IMG/VR virus record: IMGVR_UViG_3300025276_000005
Coordinates: 1 to 57,552 of that record
Strand: one strand, 5' to 3'
Source of the DNA: a virus
Taxonomy: Duplodnaviria; Caudoviricetes
Length of the DNA stretch: 57,552 nt
Part shown: piece after piece, positions 3,703 to 41,940 of the stretch
How positions within the stretch are numbered: the first letter of the stretch is position 1
Layout: every line of letters starts with the position of its first letter
Notes under the pieces: model-generated
The model's input: only the letters and a program-made list of their open reading frames with translations
What the model was told of the DNA's origin: nothing
The model's database searches: none
Made by a program: the position numbers and the translations under genes

Positions 3703-6700
3703 TTAACTGCAATCACAATTTGTTACTGTTATAGATACATTATTTGTTGAAGGGCTTATGTTAGGGTATGTCTGAGAACAAACACTAGCACCTCTTGACC
3801 CTCCTGCAAGAGTTTCACTAGCTGCACCACCACTTGTATTTGTGTATGATATTGTTATAGTTGTCTGACTATTATTTAGTATTTGATACTGTGTGTTTGT
3901 AGCTGAGCATCCACAATCACAACAAACAGCTTGTAAGTTTAAGGCAATTTGAGTACCCGCTTTTTGACATATCAAAGACAATGGCTTAAGCCTTAAATCC
4001 CAAACTAAATACAAGTAATCATAACTAGTTAAAGGTACTGTAAACGTAGCTGAACTAGTTATCCCCTGTGTTGATGGTATTAAAGTAGTGGTAGGAGCTT
4101 GTGTTTTAATTAAAGCTAACATTGCACTTAAGTCTGTCGAGTTATTACCATACAAAGTATTAGATGCTAGATACATAAACCTATCTGAAGACTCAATACT
4201 ATAGTTGTCAGTTGAATATGTATTAGAAATCATTGTCAACGTATTACCTTTTATTGGTATACCACCCTCACCTTGAAAACCATCTGATATTTGGTAGAAA
4301 GAAGAACCTACAATATCACTAGTATTATTGTTAAAATTAACAATTTGGTCAGGTGATGATGATTGACTAACACCTCCGAAGTACCTCCAATTATGATGTA
4401 TACTTTCTGTAGCATCATCATTGTTTGTTAAAACAATATCAACAACTTTTAATGGAGACCCTACAGGGCAGTTAGAAGTAATATTAAAGTCAGCATCAAG
4501 ACCTCCAATCTTAGTTAAAGTTACGTTATACTTAGATGGAGTCTGTTTGTTTTTAAAGAAAGTATTTACTCCTAAACCAAATATTGTTTGATTAATCTGC
4601 TCAATACCATCCCAACTTACAGTAAGATTTACAGGAGTTGCAACAGGTACTTCAGTATTTATATTGATATCACCAATTGCTAAAGGAGCTTCAACGCAAT
4701 AGCTAATACTATTTTCTTTTAAAATAAAAGACTGTCTCTGACCGCAGGGTATGCAATCCACTGTGGATGGTAATAACACATCATTACTAGATAAAACATA
4801 CTCATTCATATACGGGTCGTAACTACCTAACTTCTGTGTATTAAAGCTATCTTTAAATAAATCTCTAAACCAACTACGCATACCGTACTCTGATATAACG
4901 TTAAGTTGCTCTCTTGAATCATTACTACCTTTAAGCTGCAGTAAAGCACCTCTCTTAGCGTCAGTAAAAAACTTATCAACTCCGTATGCTACAAAACTTT
5001 CCGTATTATCACTAATACCAAAATCCTCAGTCCTAGCAACCTGTAATCCTAATACTTCGGGTACTGATGTAAGCACATTACCTCCTGAAGCATCTGATAA
5101 TAAGTTCTTACCCGTTAATACATATGAAATCTTATCCTCTTGAAGTACAAGTATATCAGTCTTACGAGCAAACATTTTATTTATAGGACCAAAAGAAGCT
5201 TCTACAGATTTAAAATTTAATAACCCTAAATTAAATTCATTAAGCCTATTTAAGTTAGTCTCGTCATTATAAATACCACTGTAAGTAATGTCACTATTTC
5301 TATACGCTTTCTTGTAATCTTGCTCTGAAACAGTAGTTACTCTATTACCTAAAGACATAGCCTTTCCTTTTATAGAGTCCCTTATTGTATAGCTTTCAAC
5401 ACCATTACCAAACGTGTAACAATTTGCAAAGTTTAAAAAAAGTTTAGCAGGTTGTGTGGCAGTCTGTGCTTGGTCAAAAGGACTAGCAAAATTACCACCA
5501 TCTAAATGGTGTCCCGTTGTCTTGTCTATTGGGTAAGAATCTTGACCTTCGTACCATACATCAGGTAATGATTCAGATGGCTCTGTTTCAAATGCCATTA
5601 TTTCGTTAGCTCTAAATATTTCAAAAGTAGCTCTTATCTGAGCATCACTACCGCTTCCCGAACAAGACTCTGTACCTGACATTAAGAATTTTAGCTCATT
5701 ATTGACTGTATCTTTAAACCATTGGTATCTATTTGTAGTAAATGAAGCTTGATTTTTAAATGAATTAACATTAGTTTGTAATTCACTATCATAAAAATTA
5801 TTAACATCTGAAGGAGTCCTTTCTCCTGTGTCAATGATGTCGCCTATATTCTCATCGTTCCACCATTCAATAATATTAGGATAAGAAGCAGGTGATGTAA
5901 ATTCTTTTTTTAACTTATAGCTTCTGTATTCACATCTATTTCCACGTTTATTTCTGTAAAAATCAAAATTTATTGTAATCCTAGAGCCTGCAGGTATATC
6001 GTATGCTGTATACGTACCACCATCAAAAGAGCCAAAACCCGTATACGAAAGAAATACATTATCTCCTCCTGAATTTTCTTCAGCATGTTTTTGACCGGGT
6101 AGTATTGCTGAGTCTACAGATGTAGCTGTAGAAAAATTATTAGCCAACATCTTCATGTAAACGCCTGACGGAGTATCTACACCTGATATAAATGTATCGC
6201 TTTGAGCTTTTTTCTCTAGTACTGTAGCAGACACACAACTAGGTAAAGGACCTGCTGAATCTTTTTTAACAGTATACACATCTCCTTCCTCAACTTTAGC
6301 TATATTCTCACCTTCTAATAAAAAGTAAGTATGGCTATCAGATGGGTCAGTAAAATAAAATCTAGTGTATATAGTCTCGTAATTCTCAGCATCAGGTTTT
6401 ATAACGAACTTATATCTAGTGGCAAAAGAAGGTGCAAGTTGAGGTATTGGTATTGTTAATTTTATTTTGTTTTGTGTAACGCTTGCTGCGCAAGGTATTC
6501 TTATTGTATTGTTAGGGCTAACTAAAGCTGTTGTAGCTCTATTAAAGTCATCCATATACACTATACCAACTTCGTAACCTCTATTACTATGCAAGCTTTG
6601 AGGGCTACTTATTGCCTGAAAAAAAGTTTCTACGTTAGTTACTTTATAATACTCATACACTGTGTTAACAGGTAGTGGATTGCTTGGTTCTGAAGTATAA

Positions 6701-8352
6701 GACATTGCAACAATAGTTATTTCTAAAGTTGTATCATTAATAACTGCGGCTAATATTGGTTGGTCTACAGCTGTTATTCCACTTTTATATTTAACATAAG
6801 GCTCTGCTCCATTGTTTTCTAAAGAAGCTAATAACGAGCAATTAAATGTATCAGTAAATGTTGTCCCAAGGCAAAATGTAGCTGAAGATGTCTTTATATT
6901 TGAAGGCTTACCAATCTTAGATTGAAAATCATTACTTTCAATTAACTCCGTAATACTGCTAAAGTTTTGAGGTAAAGTATAGCTAAACCCCATGTCTATA
7001 TTTTGATTGGAAGTGGATGGGTCCGGACTTGGGGTTCCTGAAAATTGAGACCCACTAACCCTAAAACTAAAACTTAATATAGAGCCTGTCTTTAAATCAG
7101 TATCTATATCTAATAAAGGTATTTGAATTTTACCTTCTGAAGTTACTGAGCCATCTATAGTATATGTTTTGTTAGATACACTCTCACCTGTTATCTCTGT
7201 AATACCAAGGTCGTTTTGTTCTAGTTCAGTAAAATAATCTAACCTAGTATTTACTCCATCTCTATTTAAATCATAACCATCTACATAGTTACCGTACATA
7301 ATACGGTTACCCATAAGCGTTTGTGTCTTAGACAATAATGGTACGTTATCATACAACCTTAATATTTCACCACTTGATAATATTGTAAATATTTTATTGT
7401 CAGTAAATGAATAGTTGTACAACTCATTATTTAAATAACCTAATTCTATTTTATTAAGTGACTCAATGATTTTTATCTGTGAAGAATCTGAATCTTTAAA
7501 TAATATTTCTATTTCAGTAACTCTTTTATTTCCTGAATTAAATAATATTGTAGCGTTATTAAATGAGTTAACCATACCTTCGTTAAGGTTTGTCTCAACA
7601 GATAAATTAAAAGGCTTGGTGTTAAATACGGGATTTGTAAATATAGACGTAGCAGAGTACTCATTGTCCTCATACTTATACCTATAACCAAAGCATAAAA
7701 ACTCATTCTCTAAAAAAGAATCACTACCCCCATTATTAATACCTGTAACTAAAGGTGCTTGATGTGGTGGCTTAACTATTACTAATAAATCATCAGAAGA
7801 AAATAAGTCGCTGTCCGCTAAACCTGCGGGATAAGCGTAACTTTTATTTACGTTTATTTTTCTAGGAGGATTATAATTATCTGTAAAAAATAATAAGTTA
7901 CCCACCTTATTAACCTCTGTAATTAAATAAGTAGGGTTAAAATTTAAAGTGGTATTAGTAACATCCTCAGCGTTTTTAAAACTTACAACGTGGTATTCTG
8001 AAGCTCTAGTCTTAGTATTAAATGATACTATCAAATCAGCCTTACCTGTAGATACAAGAGGTTGATTGCTATCGTGTATAAACCAATATATAGTCTCGTT
8101 AGCCCCGTCTTCAAAAGCACCTATACACCTAGCATCATTACTTAAGTCATATTCAGTAGTACCAAATACACCCAAGTTTACAGTTGTTAAAAGCTCATTA
8201 CCTTTTGAGTTTTCAACAGAACCAATCTCTGAATCCTCGGTAGACCCAAGGCGTACATTTAACGCATCAATGTACTGACCGTTAGGCACAAGTCTCTCAT
8301 CAAGAGACTTATTCATCTTACCCGCTATAAAATTTCTTTTACTATTAGCCAT
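3703..8352 (-). CDS. Tail stabilisation/nozzle ('muzzle'-like) protein, 1549 aa
   Basis: N-terminal GKMNKSLDERLVPNGQYIDALN, LLFFTDNYNPPRKIN, GNRIMYGNY and NGVESYTIRD motifs are typical of crAss-like stabilisation proteins. It follows the ring-protein genes. Confidence 0.75.
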   Translation of the reverse strand: MANSKRNFIAGKMNKSLDERLVPNGQYIDALNVRLGSTEDSEIGSVENSKGNELLTTVNLGVFGTTEYDLSNDARCIGAFEDGANETIYWFIHDSNQPLVSTGKADLIVSFNTKTRASEYHVVSFKNAEDVTNTTLNFNPTYLITEVNKVGNLLFFTDNYNPPRKINVNKSYAYPAGLADSDLFSSDDLLVIVKPPHQAPLVTGINNGGSDSFLENEFLCFGYRYKYEDNEYSATSIFTNPVFNTKPFNLSVETNLNEGMVNSFNNATILFNSGNKRVTEIEILFKDSDSSQIKIIESLNKIELGYLNNELYNYSFTDNKIFTILSSGEILRLYDNVPLLSKTQTLMGNRIMYGNYVDGYDLNRDGVNTRLDYFTELEQNDLGITEITGESVSNKTYTIDGSVTSEGKIQIPLLDIDTDLKTGSILSFSFRVSGSQFSGTPSPDPSTSNQNIDMGFSYTLPQNFSSITELIESNDFQSKIGKPSNIKTSSATFCLGTTFTDTFNCSLLASLENNGAEPYVKYKSGITAVDQPILAAVINDTTLEITIVAMSYTSEPSNPLPVNTVYEYYKVTNVETFFQAISSPQSLHSNRGYEVGIVYMDDFNRATTALVSPNNTIRIPCAASVTQNKIKLTIPIPQLAPSFATRYKFVIKPDAENYETIYTRFYFTDPSDSHTYFLLEGENIAKVEEGDVYTVKKDSAGPLPSCVSATVLEKKAQSDTFISGVDTPSGVYMKMLANNFSTATSVDSAILPGQKHAEENSGGDNVFLSYTGFGSFDGGTYTAYDIPAGSRITINFDFYRNKRGNRCEYRSYKLKKEFTSPASYPNIIEWWNDENIGDIIDTGERTPSDVNNFYDSELQTNVNSFKNQASFTTNRYQWFKDTVNNELKFLMSGTESCSGSGSDAQIRATFEIFRANEIMAFETEPSESLPDVWYEGQDSYPIDKTTGHHLDGGNFASPFDQAQTATQPAKLFLNFANCYTFGNGVESYTIRDSIKGKAMSLGNRVTTVSEQDYKKAYRNSDITYSGIYNDETNLNRLNEFNLGLLNFKSVEASFGPINKMFARKTDILVLQEDKISYVLTGKNLLSDASGGNVLTSVPEVLGLQVARTEDFGISDNTESFVAYGVDKFFTDAKRGALLQLKGSNDSREQLNVISEYGMRSWFRDLFKDSFNTQKLGSYDPYMNEYVLSSNDVLLPSTVDCIPCGQRQSFILKENSISYCVEAPLAIGDININTEVPVATPVNLTVSWDGIEQINQTIFGLGVNTFFKNKQTPSKYNVTLTKIGGLDADFNITSNCPVGSPLKVVDIVLTNNDDATESIHHNWRYFGGVSQSSSPDQIVNFNNNTSDIVGSSFYQISDGFQGEGGIPIKGNTLTMISNTYSTDNYSIESSDRFMYLASNTLYGNNSTDLSAMLALIKTQAPTTTLIPSTQGITSSATFTVPLTSYDYLYLVWDLRLKPLSLICQKAGTQIALNLQAVCCDCGCSATNTQYQILNNSQTTITISYTNTSGGAASETLAGGSRGASVCSQTYPNISPSTNNVSITVTNCDCS

Positions 8353-8353
8353 A

Positions 8354-9277
8354 CTACTTAATCCACTTGTTTTGTCCTCTTAGATTCATAAGCAATCTAC
8401 CCGGATGAATATTACTAATTCTTATCTTTGCGTTACGTAAAAGAGCAGCCTTCTTTTTCTTGGCTCTATTCACAACGTACTCCTGAACTCCTAACTTACT
8501 ATCTAATATAGAGTATTGTATGTATGCGTAAACGTACTCCTCAAACAATTTATTAACTGTTATAAGAGAATTATCACCACCCTCCATACCATCAGATACG
8601 TACTCTACTATCACACTCTTGCCTGACATTGTAGAATCAAAATTAATAACGCCTGCCTTAGCATCTATCCTAAAGGTAGGGTTAGCGTTAGCTGTCTCCG
8701 TGTTAAGCCCGTAGCGAGCTCCTATAGCAAAATCAAAGAACCAATTACCATCACAGCAGTAACCTTCTGCGTTATTATACGCACTATTGCTGTTTAAGTA
8801 TATACTCTTCTTAGTTCCTTTTATACGTGCAACATCAATTGGTGAGAATTCAGGCTTTAATACGCTTCCCGATTCATCAAACAATATATTTAAATTATTG
8901 TCCTGAAGATAAGCTTGTGCCGAAGTAAGTTGAATATTCTCTGTCATTGGTCTTAGTACACCATTCTCAAACAAAGATATACGAACCCAATTAACGTAGT
9001 CTGACGGCAATATAAATCGAACCGCATCGTTTACTGTTAGCTCTAACGCTTTAATCTCTTTAAACGCATCGTAGTTAAGCTCCTGAACTGCACGTTTAGC
9101 GTGAAACAGAATCTTATAACGCTCTTCGTTATTTATTAAAGAGTGGTTACCTTGGTACATTAACATAAAGTTGTTAACTATATCCTTCAAGCTAACGTAT
9201 TGGTACGAACCCCAATTAGCATCTTCAGGATTTGCTCCTGAGTTTTCATAGTACTGATACTGAGATATATATGCCAT
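8354..9277 (-). CDS. Tail ring/tubular structural protein
   Basis: 307 aa; HAKRAVQELNYD, LPSDYVNWVRIS and VEYVSDG motifs; adjacent to the nozzle gene. Confidence 0.65.
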   Translation of the reverse strand: MAYISQYQYYENSGANPEDANWGSYQYVSLKDIVNNFMLMYQGNHSLINNEERYKILFHAKRAVQELNYDAFKEIKALELTVNDAVRFILPSDYVNWVRISLFENGVLRPMTENIQLTSAQAYLQDNNLNILFDESGSVLKPEFSPIDVARIKGTKKSIYLNSNSAYNNAEGYCCDGNWFFDFAIGARYGLNTETANANPTFRIDAKAGVINFDSTMSGKSVIVEYVSDGMEGGDNSLITVNKLFEEYVYAYIQYSILDSKLGVQEYVVNRAKKKKAALLRNAKIRISNIHPGRLLMNLRGQNKWIK

Positions 9278-28425: not shown

Positions 28426-28860
28426 ATGAATGAGGACTACCTAAAGTATTGGAGAGTTATACGCTACTTCGTAAAAGCAAAGTACAACCTAAGCCAAGGT
28501 GAGCTAGATGTTTTAATGTTCCTAAACTCAGAAGGGCATTTTGGTCAAGAAAAATTTGACGAGTTCAATGAATTGCTTAGTTGGGATAAGCATAGGTTTA
28601 AGAGGTTGTTAAGGGATGGGTGGATACAGGTGTTCAGAAAAAGGTGCGGTCCCACTAAAACGCTTTACATACTATCCTATAAGAGTAAGAGACTTATTCT
28701 CTCTATATATAAAAAACTAAGCGGGGAAGAAATCCCCACTAGCTTGTCAGGCAACCCTATGTTTGCCAAGAATGTAAAGTACACCGATAAGGTGTATCGA
28801 AATTTTATTATAGAGATGAACGCATTTATACGACAACAACGACATCGTGCTCCTGAATAA
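28426..28860 (+). CDS. Winged-helix (MarR-like) DNA-binding protein (start re-called at ATG 28426)
   Basis: YNLSQGELDVLMFL...FKRLLRDGWIQVFR...LYILSYKSKRLI. It is the only convincing plus-strand gene in the late arm. Confidence 0.6.
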   Translation: MNEDYLKYWRVIRYFVKAKYNLSQGELDVLMFLNSEGHFGQEKFDEFNELLSWDKHRFKRLLRDGWIQVFRKRCGPTKTLYILSYKSKRLILSIYKKLSGEEIPTSLSGNPMFAKNVKYTDKVYRNFIIEMNAFIRQQRHRAPE

Positions 28861-29083
28861 TCGTAAACTGCTCATTCTCAATGAACATAGAGTAACCCGC
28901 ACGGCTATCGTAATATATTGTGTCACTCTTGCTGATTACCTCAACCGATGTTCCGGGCTCAGCAACTATGGCTTTCTTGTATCTTATACCATCGACATCA
29001 TCACCTGATAAAAGTAGCCCTGACTTAGTCTTGACCTCTTCCTTAATTTCTTTGATTGCTATGTATTTTCCTATTGGTTTCAT
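28826..29083 (-). CDS. groES: Co-chaperonin GroES
   Basis: MKPIGKYIAI...KTKSGLLL...IVAEPG...IIQEHDVVVV. Confidence 0.85.
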   Translation of the reverse strand: MKPIGKYIAIKEIKEEVKTKSGLLLSGDDVDGIRYKKAIVAEPGTSVEVISKSDTIYYDSRAGYSMFIENEQFTIIQEHDVVVVV

Positions 29084-29740
29084 CTAGTATCCTGTTAAAA
29101 GTTTTAGTACGTCATCTATTGCTTTGTGTCTGTGGTTATCCTCTAGGATTACCTTAAACACGTGATTGCTATCCTTAATCTTGTGAACGTCATCAATCGC
29201 AGAGTTTAGCGATGAGGACAAGTCAATCTGTTGGTTATCTCCACAAAAAATCATCATCGAGTTTTTACCTAGTCTACCCAACGCCATACGTAATTGAGGC
29301 TTGGTTAAGTTTTGAAACTCATCTATTATAACAACAGCGTTGTCAAAAGTTCGTCCACGGAAGTGAGCTAGGGATACCAACTCAATCTCCTCGTTCTCAA
29401 CCATCTTCTGAATCTTCTCAGGCTTGTTGTACACCTTACGCATATTGGACATAATAGGAATAAGCCAAGGCTCTAGCTTCTCCTTCTCATCTCCGGGCAG
29501 GAAACCATTGTCCTCCGTAGCGACAGTAGGACGAGTAATAATTACCCTGTCGTACTCTCGCTTGAAGAACATATCGAGAGCCACCTGTACGGCTAAAAGA
29601 GTCTTACCTGAGCCTGCTTTGCCGACTATAAAACTGAAGGCGTGGTTTAGTATGTTCTCCTTTGCTCTTTTTTGCTCGTCTGATAAAGTTATATTAAACT
29701 TTACCTCTCCCCTAGGTGTCCTCTTTTCCTTATTAGCCAT
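29084..29740 (-). CDS. phoH: PhoH-like ATPase
   Basis: GKAGSGKT, ITRP, GFLPG, RGRTFDNAVVIIDEFQN, GDNQQIDL. Confidence 0.92.
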   Translation of the reverse strand: MANKEKRTPRGEVKFNITLSDEQKRAKENILNHAFSFIVGKAGSGKTLLAVQVALDMFFKREYDRVIITRPTVATEDNGFLPGDEKEKLEPWLIPIMSNMRKVYNKPEKIQKMVENEEIELVSLAHFRGRTFDNAVVIIDEFQNLTKPQLRMALGRLGKNSMMIFCGDNQQIDLSSSLNSAIDDVHKIKDSNHVFKVILEDNHRHKAIDDVLKLLTGY

Positions 29741-29823
29741 TACTTGTCTCTTACTTGGAAAGCACTAATGATAACTATTAAAGCTAACATTGTTATCACC
29801 ATTATTACCACGTTTACAACCAT
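29740..29823 (-). CDS. 27-aa single-pass membrane peptide
   Basis: MVVNVVIMVITMLALIVIISAFQVRDK; its TAA overlaps the phoH ATG. Confidence 0.45.
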   Translation of the reverse strand: MVVNVVIMVITMLALIVIISAFQVRDK

Positions 29824-29843
29824 AATAGTTTTCCTTGTTTTAG

Positions 29844-31451
29844 TTACTTTGTCTCGTAGCTACGTGCCATCGTTACAATCGCATTAGTGCTAAGAAGCGT
29901 GACAGCTACTGACACAGCATTTTGAAGTGCGTTCTTTGTAACCTTCATCGGGTCAATAACACCCATTGACATCAGCTTACCTCTCTTATCATTCTTTACG
30001 TCATAACCAAAACCTCTTGGCGTGTCATCGCTATACAAGTCATCATACATCAAGCCTGCGTTTGATAGTATAGTTTTAATCGGCGAGAGTAAAGACTCTC
30101 TAAGTATGTTATAAGCAGTCTTCTTCTCATCAGACCAACTTTCACTTATCGTCATAAACCTCGCTATGTTCTCAAGCGCCAATCCACCACCGGGTAGTAT
30201 ACCCTCAAGTGTAGCTGAACGTACCGCACATACAGCGTCATCAACCCTGTCAAACAACTCCTTGTGCTCTAGGTCAGTATTTCCACCAACGTATATAACA
30301 CCAACACCACCGGTAAGTGATGCTACCCTTGATAGGATAAACTCACGCTCAGTCTTTGTGCTTGAAGCAGCGTGCGCTCCGTGCAATTGCTCAACTCTCT
30401 CGTCTATATCCTCTTGAGAAACAACGTCATCGTCCTTTAATATAATCGTTGAAGCACGACCAACTATAACCTTGTTAGCTTTACCCAAGTCACTTGGCAT
30501 TATTAAGCTCAAGTCATCGCCCGTCTTCTCACTAAAGTAAGTAGCCCCAACCGATAAAGCAATGTCGTTCATTAGCTCGTGCTGCTTGTAACCAAAGTTA
30601 GGCGGCTGTATACAACATATCTTCAAGCCGTTCTTCATCACGTTTGCCGATAAGGTGTTAATCACGTTTGTCGAGCAAGGCGCAATAATCAATAGCTTAC
30701 CACCCTCTTGGATGATTGGCTTCAATACATTCTCAATCTGTAGTATGTTAGTTATCTCAGCGTCACTAACTAAAACACTAGCACCGTCAAAGATACACTC
30801 GTCCTTCTTGTGGTTGTTAATAAACAAGTTAGATGAGTATCCTCTGTCTACCTTAATACCCATTGTAGTCTCAAAGTGTGTGTCGGATGTTTGTGAACGC
30901 TCAACTGTAACGATACCATTAACGCCAACCTCTTTATACACGTTAGCTATTATGTTACCAATACTTGAGTCGTTGTTCGCTGATATAGTAGCTACACTTA
31001 CTAGAGTTTTATCTGTAACAGGTTTGCTCATCTTCTTAAGACTCTTAACAACCTCGTCAGTACCCTTTACAAGCTCTCTAAGGACCGCTGTCTTATTATG
31101 CTTATCAGTAATCATCTCGTCTCCATTTCGTACTAAGGCGTTAGATAACACGATAGCCGTTGTCGTACCATCACCGGCAGACAATGCAGTCTTCTCCGCT
31201 GCCTCTTTTACAATTCTGACTGCAAGATTCTCCACAGGGTCAAGCAAGCTAATAGATTTAGCCACCGTGACTCCATCCTTAGTAACCGTCATTCCCGATA
31301 AATGTTCTTCTGATTCGATAAGCACTGTATGACCTTGAGGACCAAGGGTGCTCTTTACTGCATTTGTAATCTTCTCTAGACCTTTGAATAATTTTACTCT
31401 ACCTTCTTGAGAGAAATGCAATTCTTTAGGAGTGTAACCTGATTGATTCAT
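29844..31451 (-). CDS. groEL: Chaperonin GroEL (phage type, no GGM tail)
   Basis: STLGPQG, VTKDGVTVAKSI, AGDGTTTA, ATISAN, EGILPGGG, GVIDPMKV. Confidence 0.95.
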   Translation of the reverse strand: MNQSGYTPKELHFSQEGRVKLFKGLEKITNAVKSTLGPQGHTVLIESEEHLSGMTVTKDGVTVAKSISLLDPVENLAVRIVKEAAEKTALSAGDGTTTAIVLSNALVRNGDEMITDKHNKTAVLRELVKGTDEVVKSLKKMSKPVTDKTLVSVATISANNDSSIGNIIANVYKEVGVNGIVTVERSQTSDTHFETTMGIKVDRGYSSNLFINNHKKDECIFDGASVLVSDAEITNILQIENVLKPIIQEGGKLLIIAPCSTNVINTLSANVMKNGLKICCIQPPNFGYKQHELMNDIALSVGATYFSEKTGDDLSLIMPSDLGKANKVIVGRASTIILKDDDVVSQEDIDERVEQLHGAHAASSTKTEREFILSRVASLTGGVGVIYVGGNTDLEHKELFDRVDDAVCAVRSATLEGILPGGGLALENIARFMTISESWSDEKKTAYNILRESLLSPIKTILSNAGLMYDDLYSDDTPRGFGYDVKNDKRGKLMSMGVIDPMKVTKNALQNAVSVAVTLLSTNAIVTMARSYETK

Positions 31452-31474
31452 TTTGTATTTGATTTGATTTGATG

Positions 31475-31482
31475 CAAATATA
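31475..31482 (-). promoter_or_regulatory. Bacteroidota -7 box for groEL; equivalent boxes at 1917, 9997, 11506, 14904, 22691 and 28366
   Basis: TAnnTTTG on the minus strand, 8-31 nt upstream of the respective start codons. Confidence 0.65.
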
Positions 31483-31505
31483 GTATTTTATATTTAATTA
31501 TAACA

Positions 31506-31680
31506 CAATGTTGGTTGTCAAGATTCTGACGCTCTCTATATATATATATATTTTTACTCTCTCTTTATATATTTATTTCACTTCAAACTAAAGTTAAAGT
31601 TAACATTGTTGTCAAAGTAATTAATAATCAAATAGTTAATATATTTATTTCAACATAAAGTCAACATAAAGTTAACATTA
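31506..31680. repeat. AT-rich element, copy A (candidate replication origin)
   Basis: Non-coding; (TA)n tract and repeated AAAGTYAACAT; shares ordered motifs with 41767-41940. Confidence 0.5.
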
Positions 31681-31695
31681 AATGTCGAGTTAAAT

Positions 31696-31721
31696 AAAAA
31701 AAAGAGGGAATTAACCCTCTT
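31696..31721 (-). terminator. Intrinsic terminator downstream of ORF 31772..31960
   Basis: AAGAGGG-AATTAA-CCCTCTT stem plus a T run on the minus strand. Confidence 0.75.
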
Positions 31722-31771
31722 CCCGAACTGAAGAACACTACTACTTCAACTCAACCATCAAACACAATGAC

Positions 31772-32666: not shown

Positions 32667-32825
32667 CTTCAGCAATGGGAAGTATTGCTCGTTCTTTTCT
32701 TACTAACTAACTGATTATCAGATGATTGTCCTCTAAAAGCCCCACGAGATGGGAAGGAAGACAAGAATATCCCTTTATTTCCTAGGGTTTCTGCTGATTA
32801 GGGTGAGAGACATAATGTGAGAGGA

Positions 32826-32886
32826 TATCGTAATGCAGCCAAGGTGGTCACAAGCCCACAACCAAAAAGGGATGCAGAGTGAGATA
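32826..32886 (+). ncRNA. Twister self-cleaving ribozyme (type P1), copy 1; predicted cut U32831/A32832
   Basis: P1 TATC/GATA; U^AA; P2 TGCA/TGCA; GC; P4 GTGG/CCAC enclosing loop TCACAAGC; GAGT. Both pseudoknots (AC/GT, GC/GC) can form. Confidence 0.88.
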
Positions 32887-32903
32887 ACAATTAAACCAAG
32901 ATT

Positions 32904-33032
32904 ATGAAAGAAAAAGATGAGTTTCCTGAAATGGAATTGTATGAACACTATTCTTTTTATGTAGAGAATTGTGTAGACGAAGATAAGGGAGAAATACCTT
33001 TAGGCTTTGACGAATGGAAAATAAACCAATAA
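32904..33032 (+). CDS. 42-aa acidic early peptide, absent from the ORF track
   Basis: MKEKDEFPEMELYEHYSFYVENCVDEDKGEIPLGFDEWKINQ, preceded by the recurring AAACCAAGATTATG start context. Confidence 0.55.
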   Translation: MKEKDEFPEMELYEHYSFYVENCVDEDKGEIPLGFDEWKINQ

Positions 33033-33771: not shown

Positions 33772-34458
33772 ATGAACAAATTCAACGAATTATTAGCAGC
33801 AAAAAGTGGTGTAAACATCAAGAAAGTTAATACCATTAAGGGACAGATTAACAAGCTAGAGTCTAACAAGTTTGACAAGCAGATTGAGTTATCAAGAATC
33901 TGCTGCTCAGCGGAACAATGGTTTAAGTTAGCAGAAACCAAGCAACATATGAAAGATGCAGAGATTGAGATGACGATGGACAAGTTTGGAAATGATACGT
34001 TTGGATTCAAAAGAAGCCAATGGTCATTGTATAGACAAGTGGGTAACTTACTTACTGAGAAAGAAGAATTACTTGCAACATTCATCGCTGATAGAGAAGA
34101 AAAGGTAGCTAACAATGAAACCCCAAACAAATCATTAAAGGCCTTAAAGGATTGGATGATTAATGATGGTGTAGAGGAAGCAGAAGCAGAAGCAGAAGCA
34201 GAAGCAGAAGAGGAAGCAGAAGCAGAAGCAGAAGCAGAAGAAAAGACTAACTACATTGTTAGTTTTGCTATCAAAGGAGAGCATTTTGAAGATGGCAAAG
34301 GAGTTAGTATTAGAATAGCTGAAAGCGGAATTGTAGAGGGAGACATTGAAAAGATACCAAGTGGATTGAGAAAAGAGTTAGCGAAGTTATCATCTCAGAT
34401 AGCTTTAAAGCAACCAAATGCGATTGTGGAAACCAAAGGTAAGAGTGAATCAAAATAA
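33772..34458 (+). CDS. Early protein with an acidic (EA)n linker
   Basis: 228 aa; GAAGCA tandem repeats. Confidence 0.7.
   Translation: MNKFNELLAAKSGVNIKKVNTIKGQINKLESNKFDKQIELSRICCSAEQWFKLAETKQHMKDAEIEMTMDKFGNDTFGFKRSQWSLYRQVGNLLTEKEELLATFIADREEKVANNETPNKSLKALKDWMINDGVEEAEAEAEAEAEEEAEAEAEAEEKTNYIVSFAIKGEHFEDGKGVSIRIAESGIVEGDIEKIPSGLRKELAKLSSQIALKQPNAIVETKGKSESK
34174..34242 (+). repeat. In-frame hexamer tandem repeat (GAAGCA)n in two blocks
   Basis: Encodes EEAEAEAEAEAEEEAEAEAEAEE. Confidence 0.9.
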
Positions 34459-35205: not shown

Positions 35206-35583
35206 ATGAAAAAGCGAGTAATTAACTTAGTAATAGATGCGTGTTATCTCATAGACAAAAAACGTGGTGTATTAAAGAATTACGAATATGAGACTGCGCC
35301 ATATTGTGGTCATCATAGGAGTGGAACAGATGGGGTTCTGTATAGTTCTTCTTACGCAGAAGGCGATGGTGGAGAGTCTGCCCATATAATTGGCTTTAGG
35401 TTTACTAAAAGCACAGATGATGAGTATTGGTGGAGTTTTAGATACAAGGTAGTGCGAGAGGTGTTTAACGATGGGTTATTTATAGCAGAGTCAAAATACA
35501 CCACATTCTTAAATGAGTTAAAGGCAGTATTCTTTTACCACAAACACGGATTCAGCCTTAGGTACAGAATAAAAACAAAATAA
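35206..35583 (+). CDS. Early hypothetical protein
   Basis: 125-aa ORF. Confidence 0.6.
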   Translation: MKKRVINLVIDACYLIDKKRGVLKNYEYETAPYCGHHRSGTDGVLYSSSYAEGDGGESAHIIGFRFTKSTDDEYWWSFRYKVVREVFNDGLFIAESKYTTFLNELKAVFFYHKHGFSLRYRIKTK

Positions 35584-35616
35584 ATTAGGTTATGTCTAAT
35601 TTATAATGTATATTTG
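35582..35616 (+). promoter_or_regulatory. Operator/promoter unit 1
   Basis: AAATTAG-N7-CTAATTT, 6 nt, then TATATTTG. Confidence 0.75.
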
Positions 35617-35684
35617 ACTAATTAATAACTAATAACCTATTAGATGTCCGCTTAAGCGGATGTCTGATAATTAAAACCAAGAAG

Positions 35685-36457: not shown

Positions 36458-36470
36458 AATAAGTTAAAAT

Positions 36471-36505
36471 AAATTAGGTCATGTCTAATTCATAACTTAT
36501 ATTTG
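36471..36505 (+). promoter_or_regulatory. Operator/promoter unit 2
   Basis: AAATTAG-N7-CTAATTC, 6 nt, then TATATTTG. Confidence 0.75.
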
Positions 36506-36566
36506 CCTAATCAATAACTAATTAACTAACAATGTCCGTTCAAGCGGACTTATTAAAACCAAGATT

Positions 36567-36767
36567 ATGGCGCAGAAGACAATAAAGAAAGGTGAGGGCT
36601 ACGAGGTAGTCGCTCACTACACCAACAATGAGTTTGGACTTGAGGTCACATCAGTTGACTACGAGTGTAGTGTAACTAATTGTGTGGTTCCTATAGATAC
36701 CTTCCTATACGATTTCCTAAGTGTAGGAGCAATTAACGAAATGGAAGACAAACTAAAACAAGACTAA
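36567..36767 (+). CDS. Early hypothetical protein
   Basis: 66 aa; AAAACCAAGATTATG start context. Confidence 0.6.
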   Translation: MAQKTIKKGEGYEVVAHYTNNEFGLEVTSVDYECSVTNCVVPIDTFLYDFLSVGAINEMEDKLKQD

Positions 36768-36771
36768 GATT

Positions 36772-37572: not shown

Positions 37573-37601
37573 AACAACAGAGTCCGTTCGAACGGACTCT
37601 T

Positions 37602-37665
37602 TCTTTAATGTCACTAAGGTGGTCACAAGTCCATCAATCTAAGAGTTAGAGAGACAGAGTGGAGA
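37602..37665 (+). ncRNA. Twister self-cleaving ribozyme (type P1), copy 2; predicted cut U37606/A37607
   Basis: P1 TCTT/GAGA; U^AA; P2 TGTC/GACA; AC; P4 GGTGG/CCATC enclosing loop TCACAAGT; P5 TCTAA/TTAGA; GAGT. Compensatory changes relative to copy 1. Confidence 0.9.
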
Positions 37666-38025: not shown

Positions 38026-38148
38026 AAAACGAGAGTACCAAGCGTGAGTTGGGCATATAGTAAAAAGTCCTAACAGGGGTGTTAGGCAAAAGTCAGTGTC
38101 GGAAGGGGGCTTTCCTCCCCTTTCCTTCATAACTAAAACAAGACTAAG

Positions 38149-38304
38149 ATGGACTTACGAGATATTACGATAAAGATAGAGGCATACGCCAACCAAAGAG
38201 TAATAGAGGAGTTGGAGGAGTTACTAAGAAGAGCTGAAGGTAGTGGTAGAAATATAACTAATGTTGAATTATCTTTAATAATCAAATATCTAAAACAAGA
38301 CTAA
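38149..38304 (+). CDS. 51-aa early protein, absent from the ORF track
   Basis: MDLRDITIKIEAYANQRVIEELEELL...; AAAACAAGACTAAGATG start context. Confidence 0.5.
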   Translation: MDLRDITIKIEAYANQRVIEELEELLRRAEGSGRNITNVELSLIIKYLKQD

Positions 38305-38305
38305 G

Positions 38306-38524
38306 ATGCCTGCAGCAAGACAAGAGTATGTAAAAAGTAAATATCAAGGAGTATCAGGGGTTATGACTAAAGGCGTAGTTAAATGGCGTGTAAACATCGC
38401 AGGAGTAGGACGTGCTAATTTAGCTTCTGAAAGAGAATGTGCTATTGCAGTAGATAAAATTAAAATAAGTCAAGGTAAAGAACCCGTTAATATACTAAAG
38501 AGAGTTAAAATAATTAGTCTATGA
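38306..38524 (+). CDS. AP2-like DNA-binding protein
   Basis: SKYQGV...KWRVNI...SERECAIAVD resembles the AP2 domain pattern. Confidence 0.6.
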   Translation: MPAARQEYVKSKYQGVSGVMTKGVVKWRVNIAGVGRANLASERECAIAVDKIKISQGKEPVNILKRVKIISL

Positions 38525-38545
38525 CTAATTTATAACTTATATTTA
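38511..38545 (+). promoter_or_regulatory. Operator/promoter unit 3
   Basis: AATTAGTC-TAT-GACTAATT followed at the same spacing by TATATTTA (one mismatch to the -7 box). Confidence 0.6.
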
Positions 38546-38556
38546 CATAATTATTA

Positions 38557-38682
38557 GTGGTCAACTTGGTTTCTCCGATGTCTTGGGGACTGAAGGATTG
38601 TCTGCTTATGGTTAATAGTCGTGACCACGTGGGTGTTTTTAATGCTTCACCTATTCATAACGACAAAGACAGTCAAAGACAT
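38557..38682 (+). ncRNA. Unassigned structured RNA (long interrupted hairpin with a possible pseudoknot)
   Basis: Nested stems ATGTCTT/AAGACAT, GACTG/CAGTC, TTGTC/GACAA, TTATG/CATAA, GTGGGTG/CACCTAT, plus GTGGTCA/TGACCAC. Confidence 0.55.
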
Positions 38683-38729
38683 TAATTGGATGTCCGCTTA
38701 GGCGGACATCTACTTTAAACTAAAAACAT

Positions 38730-39086
38730 ATGACAAGTAGATTAAAAGAAAGTATAGTAAACGATATTCGGGCAGAGAAACTTTGCTCTACTCCGGATAA
38801 ACACCACATACAGAGGTGTCAGAAAATACTAGATAACCTAGAGAGTCTAACTTACGAGCAGTTTATTAATACCGGACACATAATGCCTAAGAGGCATATT
38901 ATAGATAGGTATCCTCATAGAAAGCTGAAGGAAAATACCAAGACAGTTTGTAGGTATGTAGGTGGTTTCTGTATTGAATTTATAGGAAAGGATGACTTTT
39001 TTTGGGGCTACCATAAAGACAAAGACTTTAAGCACGTTGAGATGACGTTGTATAACCACGTAAAGAACACAATAGATGAGCGATAA
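38730..39086 (+). CDS. Hypothetical protein
   Basis: 118-aa ORF. Confidence 0.6.
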   Translation: MTSRLKESIVNDIRAEKLCSTPDKHHIQRCQKILDNLESLTYEQFINTGHIMPKRHIIDRYPHRKLKENTKTVCRYVGGFCIEFIGKDDFFWGYHKDKDFKHVEMTLYNHVKNTIDER

Positions 39087-39640: not shown

Positions 39641-40047
39641 AATCAGTATTTGAAGAAGCCAAGCTAGACGAATACTCAGGAGTTTTAGATAGTAGGGGAG
39701 TTGAGGCTAGAATTGTACTTGCGATAAAGATTACACGAGACAGAGAAAGTGGTGATGTTGAGATACTTAACACCTCTAAAGGAGGGGATTACTACAAAGA
39801 AATATCTAAAGATGAGTACGAATTATTCATCAAAAAAGGTTGGAGATATGGAGTTTATGTCTTATATTTGTCTAATTGCCGACTAAAACTTAACTCAATT
39901 GAGATTAGAATTAACGAGCATATACAAGAGAGCATCAATACTACGTTAGAGATGTTGCAGACAAGGAGAAAAGTAATACTAAACAATTACGCAAAAGTTA
40001 AAAATAAATTAAATCAAATCAACAATGAACAAGAACACTTACAGTAA
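39628..40047 (+). CDS. Hypothetical protein
   Basis: 139-aa ORF overlapping its neighbours. Confidence 0.6.
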   Translation: MRGLESVFEEAKLDEYSGVLDSRGVEARIVLAIKITRDRESGDVEILNTSKGGDYYKEISKDEYELFIKKGWRYGVYVLYLSNCRLKLNSIEIRINEHIQESINTTLEMLQTRRKVILNNYAKVKNKLNQINNEQEHLQ

Positions 40048-41706: not shown

Positions 41707-41730
41707 TTCCCCCCGCAAATTAGATTATAG

Positions 41731-41764
41731 AGTGGATAGGCGTAAAAGTCTATCCACTTTTTTT
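41731..41764 (+). terminator. Intrinsic terminator downstream of the SSB gene
   Basis: AGTGGATAGGC-GTAAAA-GTCTATCCACT followed by a T run. Confidence 0.85.
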
Positions 41765-41766
41765 AC

Positions 41767-41940
41767 CAATGTTAACTGACGATTTTATTTTCCTATATAC
41801 TATTATATATTTTTATACTATTTATTATTTTTTTTTATCTACATTTGAAGGATAAAGTTAACATTATTAACACTACTATTGATAATCAAAGTGTTACCTT
41901 TTAATTTTTAACATAAAACAAACACAATGTCAACATTAAA
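41767..41940. repeat. AT-rich element, copy B (candidate replication origin) upstream of the primase-helicase
   Basis: Same ordered motifs as 31506-31680. Confidence 0.5.

Follow-up and report, generated by a model that had tools for sequence, protein, structure and literature searches.

A predicted double-pseudoknot RNA family carried by phages and absent from Rfam 15

The window analysed here is the whole virus record IMGVR_UViG_3300025276_000005, a stretch of 57,552 bases whose positions serve as coordinates throughout, and the subject of this study is an element at positions 38557-38682 of its + strand. The record is complete, with direct terminal repeats at its ends and a G+C content of 37%, and the stretch is found in marine and marine-sediment DNA runs. 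In Pfam/PHROG-type scans its proteins include a crAss muzzle-like domain, GroEL/GroES and PhoH, and it also encodes a Sak/exonuclease/primase-helicase module and a 2611-aa open reading frame (ORF); a domain scan of the window proteins found no reverse transcriptase. ORF 38306-38524 (+) and ORF 38730-39086 (+), which belong to a block of small rightward genes, are 205 nt apart, and the element is located in the gap that separates them. An initial annotation, made from the letters of the window, had proposed that this gap holds a structured RNA of no recognizable class with its own promoter, a candidate ribozyme, switch or decoy. The comparisons below indicate that the element belongs to a conserved, pseudoknotted, non-coding and phage-borne RNA family that is uncatalogued in Rfam 15, with the following predicted parts.

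38557..38563, + strand: 5′ strand of helix P1 (GUGGUCA), pairing with 38622-38628
38572..38589, + strand: hairpin A, with stem 38572-76/38585-89 and loop GAUGUCUU at 38577-84
38578..38584, + strand: 5′ strand of the pseudoknot helix PK, inside the loop of hairpin A, pairing with 38676-38682 (core GUCUU/AAGAC)
38596..38603, + strand: 5′ strand of helix P2, pairing with 38667-38674
38604..38612, + strand: small hairpin P3 (GCU-UAU-GGU), 38604-06/38610-12, with a loop of varying length
38618..38621, + strand: 5′ strand of helix Px (GUCG), abutting the 3′ strand of P1 and pairing with 38661-38664
38622..38628, + strand: 3′ strand of P1 (P1′; UGACCAC), pairing with 38557-38563
38629..38654, + strand: variable hairpin P4, 38629-35/38648-54
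38655..38660, + strand: conserved junction UCAUAA between P4 and Px, whose A and U are the invariant columns A104 and T105 of alignment A3
38661..38682, + strand: 3′ strands of Px (38661-64), P2 (38667-74) and PK (38676-82), with an AAA junction after Px

Homologues were collected by two routes. First, 22 related loci were fetched via the Sak protein, and an nhmmer search without any imposed motif located the element in 4 of them. Second, the most conserved hairpin served as the basis of exact-pattern scans, which picked up 42 viral, 116 metagenomic and 47 genomic loci, many of them expected by chance, and a covariance model (CM) built from 13 sequences was used to sort the real loci from the chance ones. 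The CM matched 12 of the 42 viral loci with at least 29.9 bits, 62 of the 116 metagenomic loci with at least 44 bits, and a single genomic locus out of 47 with 43.5 bits, the last being a prophage-like region of a Draconibacterium metagenome-assembled genome; matches below about 29 bits in the pattern loci were counted as chance matches to the search motif. These 72 CM matches reduce to 50 distinct sequences, of which L145, whose copy ends after P1′, and L203 (28.7 bits) were left out of the alignments. Two relaxed patterns yielded three more variants of the loop, with 48-51 bits. In total there are 51 distinct homologues, located on phage and marine metagenome contigs and in one prophage, while the window itself has a single CM match. 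A blastn search of 38400-38800 against a phage GenBank collection gave no match.

The RNA is phage-borne and essentially absent from cellular genomes; for example, among 151 sampled genomes of the class of the prophage host, it occurs in one, the prophage host itself. The carriers are lytic marine phages, probably of Bacteroidota. Further, the element is gained and lost as one block: in the close relative L004, whose upstream ORF is 85% identical, just the initial 11 bases of the RNA (GTGGTCAAC..) are left before another gene (2700-2745), and the copy in L145 is broken off directly 3′ of the 3′ strand of P1.

The predicted fold is supported by covariation. A structure-blind MAFFT alignment of 44 sequences was compared with 500 shuffles and with controls in which the pairing partners were slid. 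In particular, 93.2% of its 1391 cells hold standard pairs versus 81.8% in the shuffles, and both-side changes are found in 147 cells versus 36.1 in the shuffles (none of the 500 had as many) and 12-47 in the slid controls. A CM-based alignment of 48 sequences, using a CM in which P1 and PK are absent, gives the same covariation picture, and the helices that RNAalifold derives from the MAFFT alignment are hairpin A, P2 (with 8 bp), P3 and Px. The proposal of a non-coding, structured RNA, for which covariation in homologues had been named as a check, is thus borne out.

The helices contribute to this signal in different ways. The 7-bp pairing between the 5′ end and an internal loop, which the initial annotation had offered as a pseudoknot or an alternative fold, corresponds to P1 and does form a pseudoknot: 6 of its 7 pairs have both-side changes, 85-86% of its cells are paired (86.3% in the MAFFT alignment), and L010 carries the compensated version GACUCCC/GGGAGUC. 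As P1 is not part of the CM, this test is independent of it. Hairpin A is paired in 98% of cells, with one pair that varies between U-G, U-A and C-G; its invariance is partly forced, because the search patterns were built on this motif. The five core pairs of PK are kept in 48 of 48 sequences with 8 changes from G-C to G-U, and the three variants from the relaxed patterns combine the loop GCCUU with the tail AAGGC, so that U38581-A38679 becomes C-G. The central 6 pairs of P2 are 100% paired in the MAFFT alignment, with both-side changes at all 6, and P3 is paired in 99-100% of cells with changes between G-U and G-C and between U-G and C-G; in L050 the loop of P3 is enlarged to about 27 nt, and in L061 to a long hairpin. 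Px has both-side changes at 4 of 4 pairs and is paired in 88.6% (MAFFT) or 97.9% (CM alignment) of cells. P4, which the initial annotation had described as the cap hairpin, is retained as a hairpin of variable sequence: at least 4 bp form in 21 of 25 distinct segments of unrelated sequence, and the hairpin is missing in the L162 type. Alignment A3 contains 33 invariant columns, about 15 of which lie outside the search patterns.

With P1 crossing both P2 and Px, and hairpin A crossed by PK, the predicted fold is that of two interleaved H-type pseudoknots around a three-way junction of P2, P3 and Px. The continuous strand 38618-38635 contains Px, P1′ and P4 in series, and the strand 38667-38682 contains the 3′ strand of P2 followed by that of PK, an arrangement along which the helices may stack coaxially. 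The minus strand folds at z -3.62, but G-U pairs are frequent (28, 35, 43 and 37 of the 44 MAFFT-aligned sequences at four pairs), which places the RNA on the + strand, as these pairs would be mismatches on the other one. The minimum free energy (MFE) of 38557-38711 (+) is -49.1 kcal/mol (z -2.73; 3 of 200 shuffles are as stable). In the MFE fold, GUGGUCA/UGACCAC forms its 7-bp pairing and the cap hairpin is present, in place of the rod of four nested helices that had been drawn by eye. All of the complementarities listed for that rod are present in the sequence, and its outermost helix (38578-84/38676-82) persists as PK; conservation of its three inner helices is poor (paired in 74%, 68% and at most 69% in the 48-sequence alignment, with 74.5% for the rod overall), and they are replaced, in other registers, by P2 (99-100% paired) and Px (89-98%).

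No catalogued family accounts for the element, which the initial annotation could not match to a class either. The 4227 covariance models of Rfam 15 give no match at gathering in the whole window, the best score on 38530-38730 is 17.2 bits versus a gathering score of 55, and nothing overlaps the element in 14 homologue loci at E up to 5. ARAGORN reports no tRNA or tmRNA gene in the window and none overlapping the element in 9 homologue loci, and the Rfam tRNA model matches the flanks in L049 and L237, never the element. The Rfam 15 models of twister, twister-sister, pistol, hatchet and hammerhead ribozymes do not match the element, nor is it a member of the drum, skipping-rope, DUF3800-I or FuFi-1 families. 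We found no description of the RNA in the literature. It may sit among the unnamed candidates of large screens such as PMC10690425, where six searched supplementary files gave no match, the largest files lying outside that search.

Across the 48 aligned homologues, the surroundings of the RNA mostly resemble those of a transcript end. A hairpin and T-run stand directly after the tail in 37 of them (counted by a lenient script that also accepts the weak tail of the window), and a TAnnTTTG box, which we take to be the Bacteroidota -7 consensus, lies within 130 nt downstream of the RNA end in 30, with TTTG at the -33 spacing in 15 of those. A strict TAnnTTTG within 22 nt upstream of P1 is found in none of the 48, and a relaxed match in 7. 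In the L008 type, the UAG immediately 5′ of P1 appears to terminate the preceding ORF, as read in a frame shared with L163. From the terminator-like hairpins and boxes downstream and the lack of a box upstream of P1, we infer that the RNA is the last element of its transcription unit in most of these phages. The window and the near-identical L080 and L140 have a promoter unit in front of the RNA and a weak hairpin behind it, directly before a gene.

Several other copies lie near tRNA genes. In L237, the RNA stands between tRNA genes and 22 nt before the next one, in L239 a tRNA follows about 250 nt downstream, and in L202 and L264 a T-arm-like sequence abuts the RNA, where ARAGORN calls no tRNA. 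The L237 tRNA array (4600-8100) has several genes with abnormal anticodon loops (ARAGORN tRNA-???) and a 135-nt match to the tRNA model with a possible intron, and that locus has an abiF RNA match at 8495-8530. In the Draconibacterium prophage (L240, 7336-9750, - strand), the RNA is followed by a pair of phrog_11581 proteins, then an Rfam RT-17 RNA and a reverse transcriptase, which together make up a retroelement cassette, and a tRNA 3′ fragment upstream of the RNA is perhaps an attachment site. A link to diversity-generating retroelements was rejected: the reverse transcriptase and RT-17 RNA, 1.3 kb from the Draconibacterium copy, were judged incidental, and the window has no such enzyme.

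Three further features frame the element in the window.

38506..38556, + strand: promoter/operator unit 3, the third copy of direct-repeat family D1
38688..38711, + strand: hairpin of 9-10 bp with a weak T tail (CTACTTTAAAC), of the GTCCGY..RCGGAC family (repeat families D3/D4)
38730..39086, + strand: P118, an orphan 118-aa gene, syntenic with the RNA in the window's clade

The D1 repeat is 63 nt long, and its copies at 35577-35639, 36466-36528 and 38506-38568 correspond to units 1, 2 and 3; a weak fourth copy lies at 39831. The D1 units hold the palindrome TTAGNNTATNNCTAA where a -33 element would sit, plus a TATATTTG/A box. In unit 3, the palindrome is TTAGTCTATGACTAA at 38514-38528 and the -7-like box is TATATTTA at 38538-38545, and units 1 and 2 have the box TATATTTG, each unit being directly 5′ of a gene. 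The palindrome and box common to the three units suggest that one repressor controls all three early units. In units 1 and 2 the box is followed by about 20 nt, a GTCCGY..RCGGAC family hairpin and a start codon; unit 3 has the same order, but with about 125 nt, the element, inserted between box and hairpin. The claim that the RNA has its own promoter therefore stands in part: a repeated promoter-like unit lies upstream of it, but in window-like copies only.

The hairpin 38688-38711 is present in the MFE fold and is unlisted by a stricter terminator scan. Its family, GTCCGYTNRRGCGGAC, has seven copies (32377, 34466, 34829, 35641, 36529, 37577 and 38687), with compensatory stem changes among C-G, U-G and U-A (D3) and loops that vary, and GATGTC often flanks them. 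In units 1 and 2, where the RNA is missing, a hairpin of this family occupies the same place between promoter-like box and start codon; the hairpin is therefore a general element of this phage, and the family may be a 5′ untranslated region (UTR) stabiliser or a processing site instead of a terminator. In the same region, a leader CTAAAACAAGACTAAG stands directly 5′ of ATG three times (36749-36771, 38129-38151 and 38286-38308), and its AAGAC is the same motif as in the tail of the RNA.

The gene behind the RNA was also followed in its relatives. A tblastn search of the fetched loci places P118 downstream of the RNA in 22 of them, and a pattern-based locus search with P118 found no relative. 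Among the Sak-anchored relatives, L007-L010 have both the RNA and P118, whereas the equally close L006 and L012 have neither; in L008 and L009, two small ORFs stand between the RNA and P118. P118 has no Pfam or PHROG match, and 16 of 18 scanned family members have no Pfam match, the rest having only matches below threshold. Its family comprises 91 representatives at E <= 1e-3, with the conserved motif C(R/K)YxGGxCIxF. The AlphaFold2 model of P118 has an alpha/beta fold with a mean confidence score (pLDDT) of 92; Foldseek against the PDB gives no match at E <= 0.001, and a wider fold comparison gives a best Z of 4.9 to an SH2-like fold, which is not meaningful, and no ToxN-like match. A profile search found no P118-like gene near the other RNA subtypes, which have unrelated genes or tRNAs downstream instead. 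Overall, a link between the RNA and P118 is suggestive, within one clade only.

Elsewhere in the window, GroES-like and GroEL-like chaperonin genes adjoin PhoH at 28826-31451 (-). AT-rich gaps at 31452-31771 and 41707-41926 border the rightward block and contain common repeats ending in AAAGTTAACATT (family D5); these gaps may be divergent promoters or an origin. Inside ORF 33772-34458, an acidic Glu/Ala-rich stretch is encoded by successive 12-nt repeats (GAAGCAGAAGCA..) at 34161-34252.

We favour, at somewhat better than an even chance, the interpretation that 38557-38682 (+) represents a new class of stable, trans-acting structured phage RNA. The RNA would be set free as a separate particle of about 130-165 nt. 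In the window, it would be transcribed from promoter unit 3 and would end near hairpin 38688-38711 or read through it; in most relatives, it would come last in an operon before an intrinsic terminator, and in some it would be released from inside a tRNA array. Its tertiary fold would then let it act in trans by binding a protein or small ligand, from either phage or host, and it would neither regulate the gene behind it nor work by simple antisense pairing. In the window's clade, the partner could be P118.

Four observations weigh against this interpretation. First, without the 3′ hairpin the folding energy is ordinary: 38550-38686 has a z of -1.01 and 32 of 200 shuffles are as stable, so the energy signal of 38557-38711 comes mostly from hairpin 38688-38711, and the expectation that the RNA would fold better than shuffled controls fails on this count. 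Second, the homologues were mostly seeded by exact motifs, which biases both the invariance of hairpin A and the apparent breadth of the family. Third, P118 is confined to one clade, and a single deletion could explain its joint absence with the RNA from L006 and L012. Fourth, the window hairpin lacks a proper T-run and the start codon of P118 follows 19 nt on, such that this copy could be a 5′ leader.

That the RNA acts through its fold is suggested by its resemblance to other complex orphan RNAs. Drum, skipping-rope, DUF3800-I and FuFi-1, described by Weinberg et al. 2017 (PMC5737381), are intricate orphan motifs followed by Rho-independent terminators, and they presumably perform a biochemically demanding task. 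The element shares with them its conserved nucleotides, its elaborate fold, the terminator that directly follows (in 37 of 48 copies) and a position that is rarely a 5′ UTR. It differs in having no sequence or CM similarity to them and in its helices and pseudoknots, and while these motifs are tied to particular protein domains, the element has only its clade-limited link to P118. Such terminator-ended motifs are the nearest described kind.

GOLLD and ROOL are phage- or prophage-borne RNAs that often have tRNA genes as neighbours. They share this context with the element but exceed it five- to sixfold in size and show no similarity to it. Like the element, they are ornate RNAs of obscure function (10.1101/2024.12.08.627333). 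The loop and tail of the element are self-complementary and could pair between molecules, although multimerisation is a speculation.

The leading alternative, which we hold to be rather unlikely, is that the element is a new self-cleaving ribozyme class that cuts, for example, at the 5′ edge of P1 and so frees itself from the early polycistronic transcript or from tRNA arrays, much as the nearby twister motifs would. As the initial annotation had noted, ribozyme-like motifs are neighbours of the element, though with scores below gathering. A twister-P1-like motif at 32827-32885 (+) scores 36.3 bits (E 5e-5; gathering 67.2) and lacks the optional stem, and a permuted Twister-P5-like motif at 37576-37634 (+) scores 19.6 bits (gathering 37.6), with one stem that is a copy of the phage's GTCCG..CGGAC hairpin. 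Both share conserved twister segments in alignments and lie in the same rightward early region as the element; the former overlaps a doubtful minus-strand ORF (32775-32948). The element itself lacks twister (Rfam CL00120) features. Twister neighbourhoods have served earlier searches for new ribozymes (PMC5737381). Self-cleavage would also fit the compact double pseudoknot with its invariant junction nucleotides, and the missing upstream box in most relatives, together with conservation that starts abruptly at (U)AG-P1, makes a processed 5′ end plausible. Some copies lie in tRNA arrays, and small ribozymes in such arrays are known to help processing (PMC10879173). However, no Rfam ribozyme model matches the element, and a terminator is directly 3′ of the RNA in most relatives, an arrangement that for comparable motifs was judged at odds with self-cleavage in PMC5737381, where three such motifs did not cleave in tests. 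In addition, the promoter unit directly upstream of the window copy leaves almost nothing to cut off, and a cleavage site cannot be named.

Among ribozymes, the element can be compared with the HDV-like fold. HDV-like ribozymes are nested double pseudoknots with the strand order P1-P2-P3-P1′-P4-P2′, a catalytic C in J4/2 and self-cleavage 5′ of P1; the 3′ strand of their P3 adjoins P1′, and L3 makes a 2-bp P1.1 with the two nucleotides behind P1′. The covarying helices of the element follow in the order P1, P2, P3, P1′, P4, P2′, with Px and PK in addition; P1 is 6-7 bp long and mostly starts with G at the edge of conservation, and P4 is variable and dispensable. In contrast, the element has no L3/P1.1: the strand preceding P1′ is base-paired to the junction that follows P4 (Px; covariation at 4 of 4 pairs), and the two positions behind P1′ vary among homologues (GU, GA, CA, GG and UG). 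The conserved UCAU after P4 has a C that is not invariant and lies 8-11 nt from P2′. The extra invariant hairpin, the second pseudoknot, the long junction between P4 and P2′, the terminator and the missing match to any HDV model are further differences. The minimal theta ribozymes are HDV-like ribozymes of phages (PMC10879173) and share with the element their phage carriers and an occasional position beside tRNAs. In its boldest form, the RNA would be the founding member of a new phage catalytic RNA class that cuts the early transcript and tRNA arrays beside twisters, which we consider distinctly unlikely; if catalytic, its double-pseudoknot core would be unlike that of any known ribozyme. Equally bold is the alternative that the RNA may serve as a free-standing aptamer and sequester a signalling nucleotide of the host.

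Another alternative, in our judgement clearly improbable, is that the element is a cis leader, a riboswitch or attenuator, controlling P118 through hairpin 38688-38711. The window order of promoter unit, RNA, hairpin and nearby start codon, as well as the 22 loci with P118 3′ of the RNA, would fit, and two partners are available to the tail AAGACAU, namely the hairpin A loop and the GAUGUC in the 5′ arm of hairpin 38688-38711. The latter pairing is not conserved, however; the L095-type terminator, for example, has no GUCU. The strong terminators in relatives and the TAnnTTTG boxes downstream of 30 of 48 copies make a cis switch unlikely; in L129, about 100 nt separate the stretch that holds the box from the beginning of the P118 match, and in L008 and L009 the two intervening ORFs separate the RNA from P118. 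The family hairpin of units 1 and 2, the unrelated genes or tRNAs behind other subtypes, and the fact that the 48 copies are not consistently in 5′ UTRs with an overlapping expression platform argue likewise. A cis-regulatory role is possible for window-like copies only.

The same order of parts also recalls type III toxin-antitoxin systems. In these (ToxI), a promoter is followed by a pseudoknotted RNA with tandem repeats, a leaky hairpin and a small protein gene. The window has this order of promoter, pseudoknotted RNA, leaky hairpin and small protein gene, but the element is a single unit, one copy instead of tandem repeats upstream of an endoribonuclease toxin, and the fold comparisons of the P118 model, in which no match reaches Z 5, show none that is ToxN-like. 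The strong terminator after the RNA in relatives, and the two ORFs before P118 in L008 and L009, are further differences.

A base-pairing RNA or decoy, acting via the GAUGUCUU loop or the AAGACA tail, is very unlikely. Candidate targets would be the ..CAAGACUAAG AUG leaders and GAUGUC-flanked hairpins of the phage, given that the leader CTAAAACAAGACTAAGATG occurs three times (D8) and GATGTC lies beside several hairpin copies (D4), and the loop and tail are the most conserved parts of the RNA. But loop and tail are complementary to each other and change together in the three variants, which argues for intramolecular pairing, and both motifs are invariant across phages with differing leaders.

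It is highly improbable, finally, that the RNA serves to stall exoribonucleases or stabilise the transcript from a position at the 3′ end of an operon. Viral exoribonuclease-resistant RNAs (xrRNAs), which stall exoribonucleases and leave a stable decay product, offer an analogue, and the element would resemble them in its position at the end of transcription units in most relatives, in the locking of its 5′ end into a junction and in its pseudoknot from hairpin loop to tail. The reasoning is purely topological, and the window and tRNA-array copies are unlike a 3′-UTR role. Chance complementarity without function, or a small protein gene (ORF 38557-38685, 42 aa, GTG start), retains next to no probability in spite of the ordinary folding energy and the GTG-start ORF, as covariation greatly exceeds that of the controls and no more than 14 of 48 homologues keep the ORF open. 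Moreover, P4 indels have lengths other than multiples of three, such that the reading frame shifts with P4 length.

The favoured interpretation, a stable RNA that would act in trans, has implications for the phages that carry it. To our knowledge, RNA classes with such a conserved tertiary architecture are nearly always ribozymes, riboswitch-type ligand binders or the cores of RNA-protein machines. With a length of about 125 nt, the element is small enough for probing, crystallography and cryo-electron microscopy (cryo-EM), and P118 provides a candidate protein partner. As phages carry the RNA beside twister-like ribozymes in their early region or within tRNA arrays, and cellular genomes essentially lack it, its task is probably specific to infection and of a kind not described so far.

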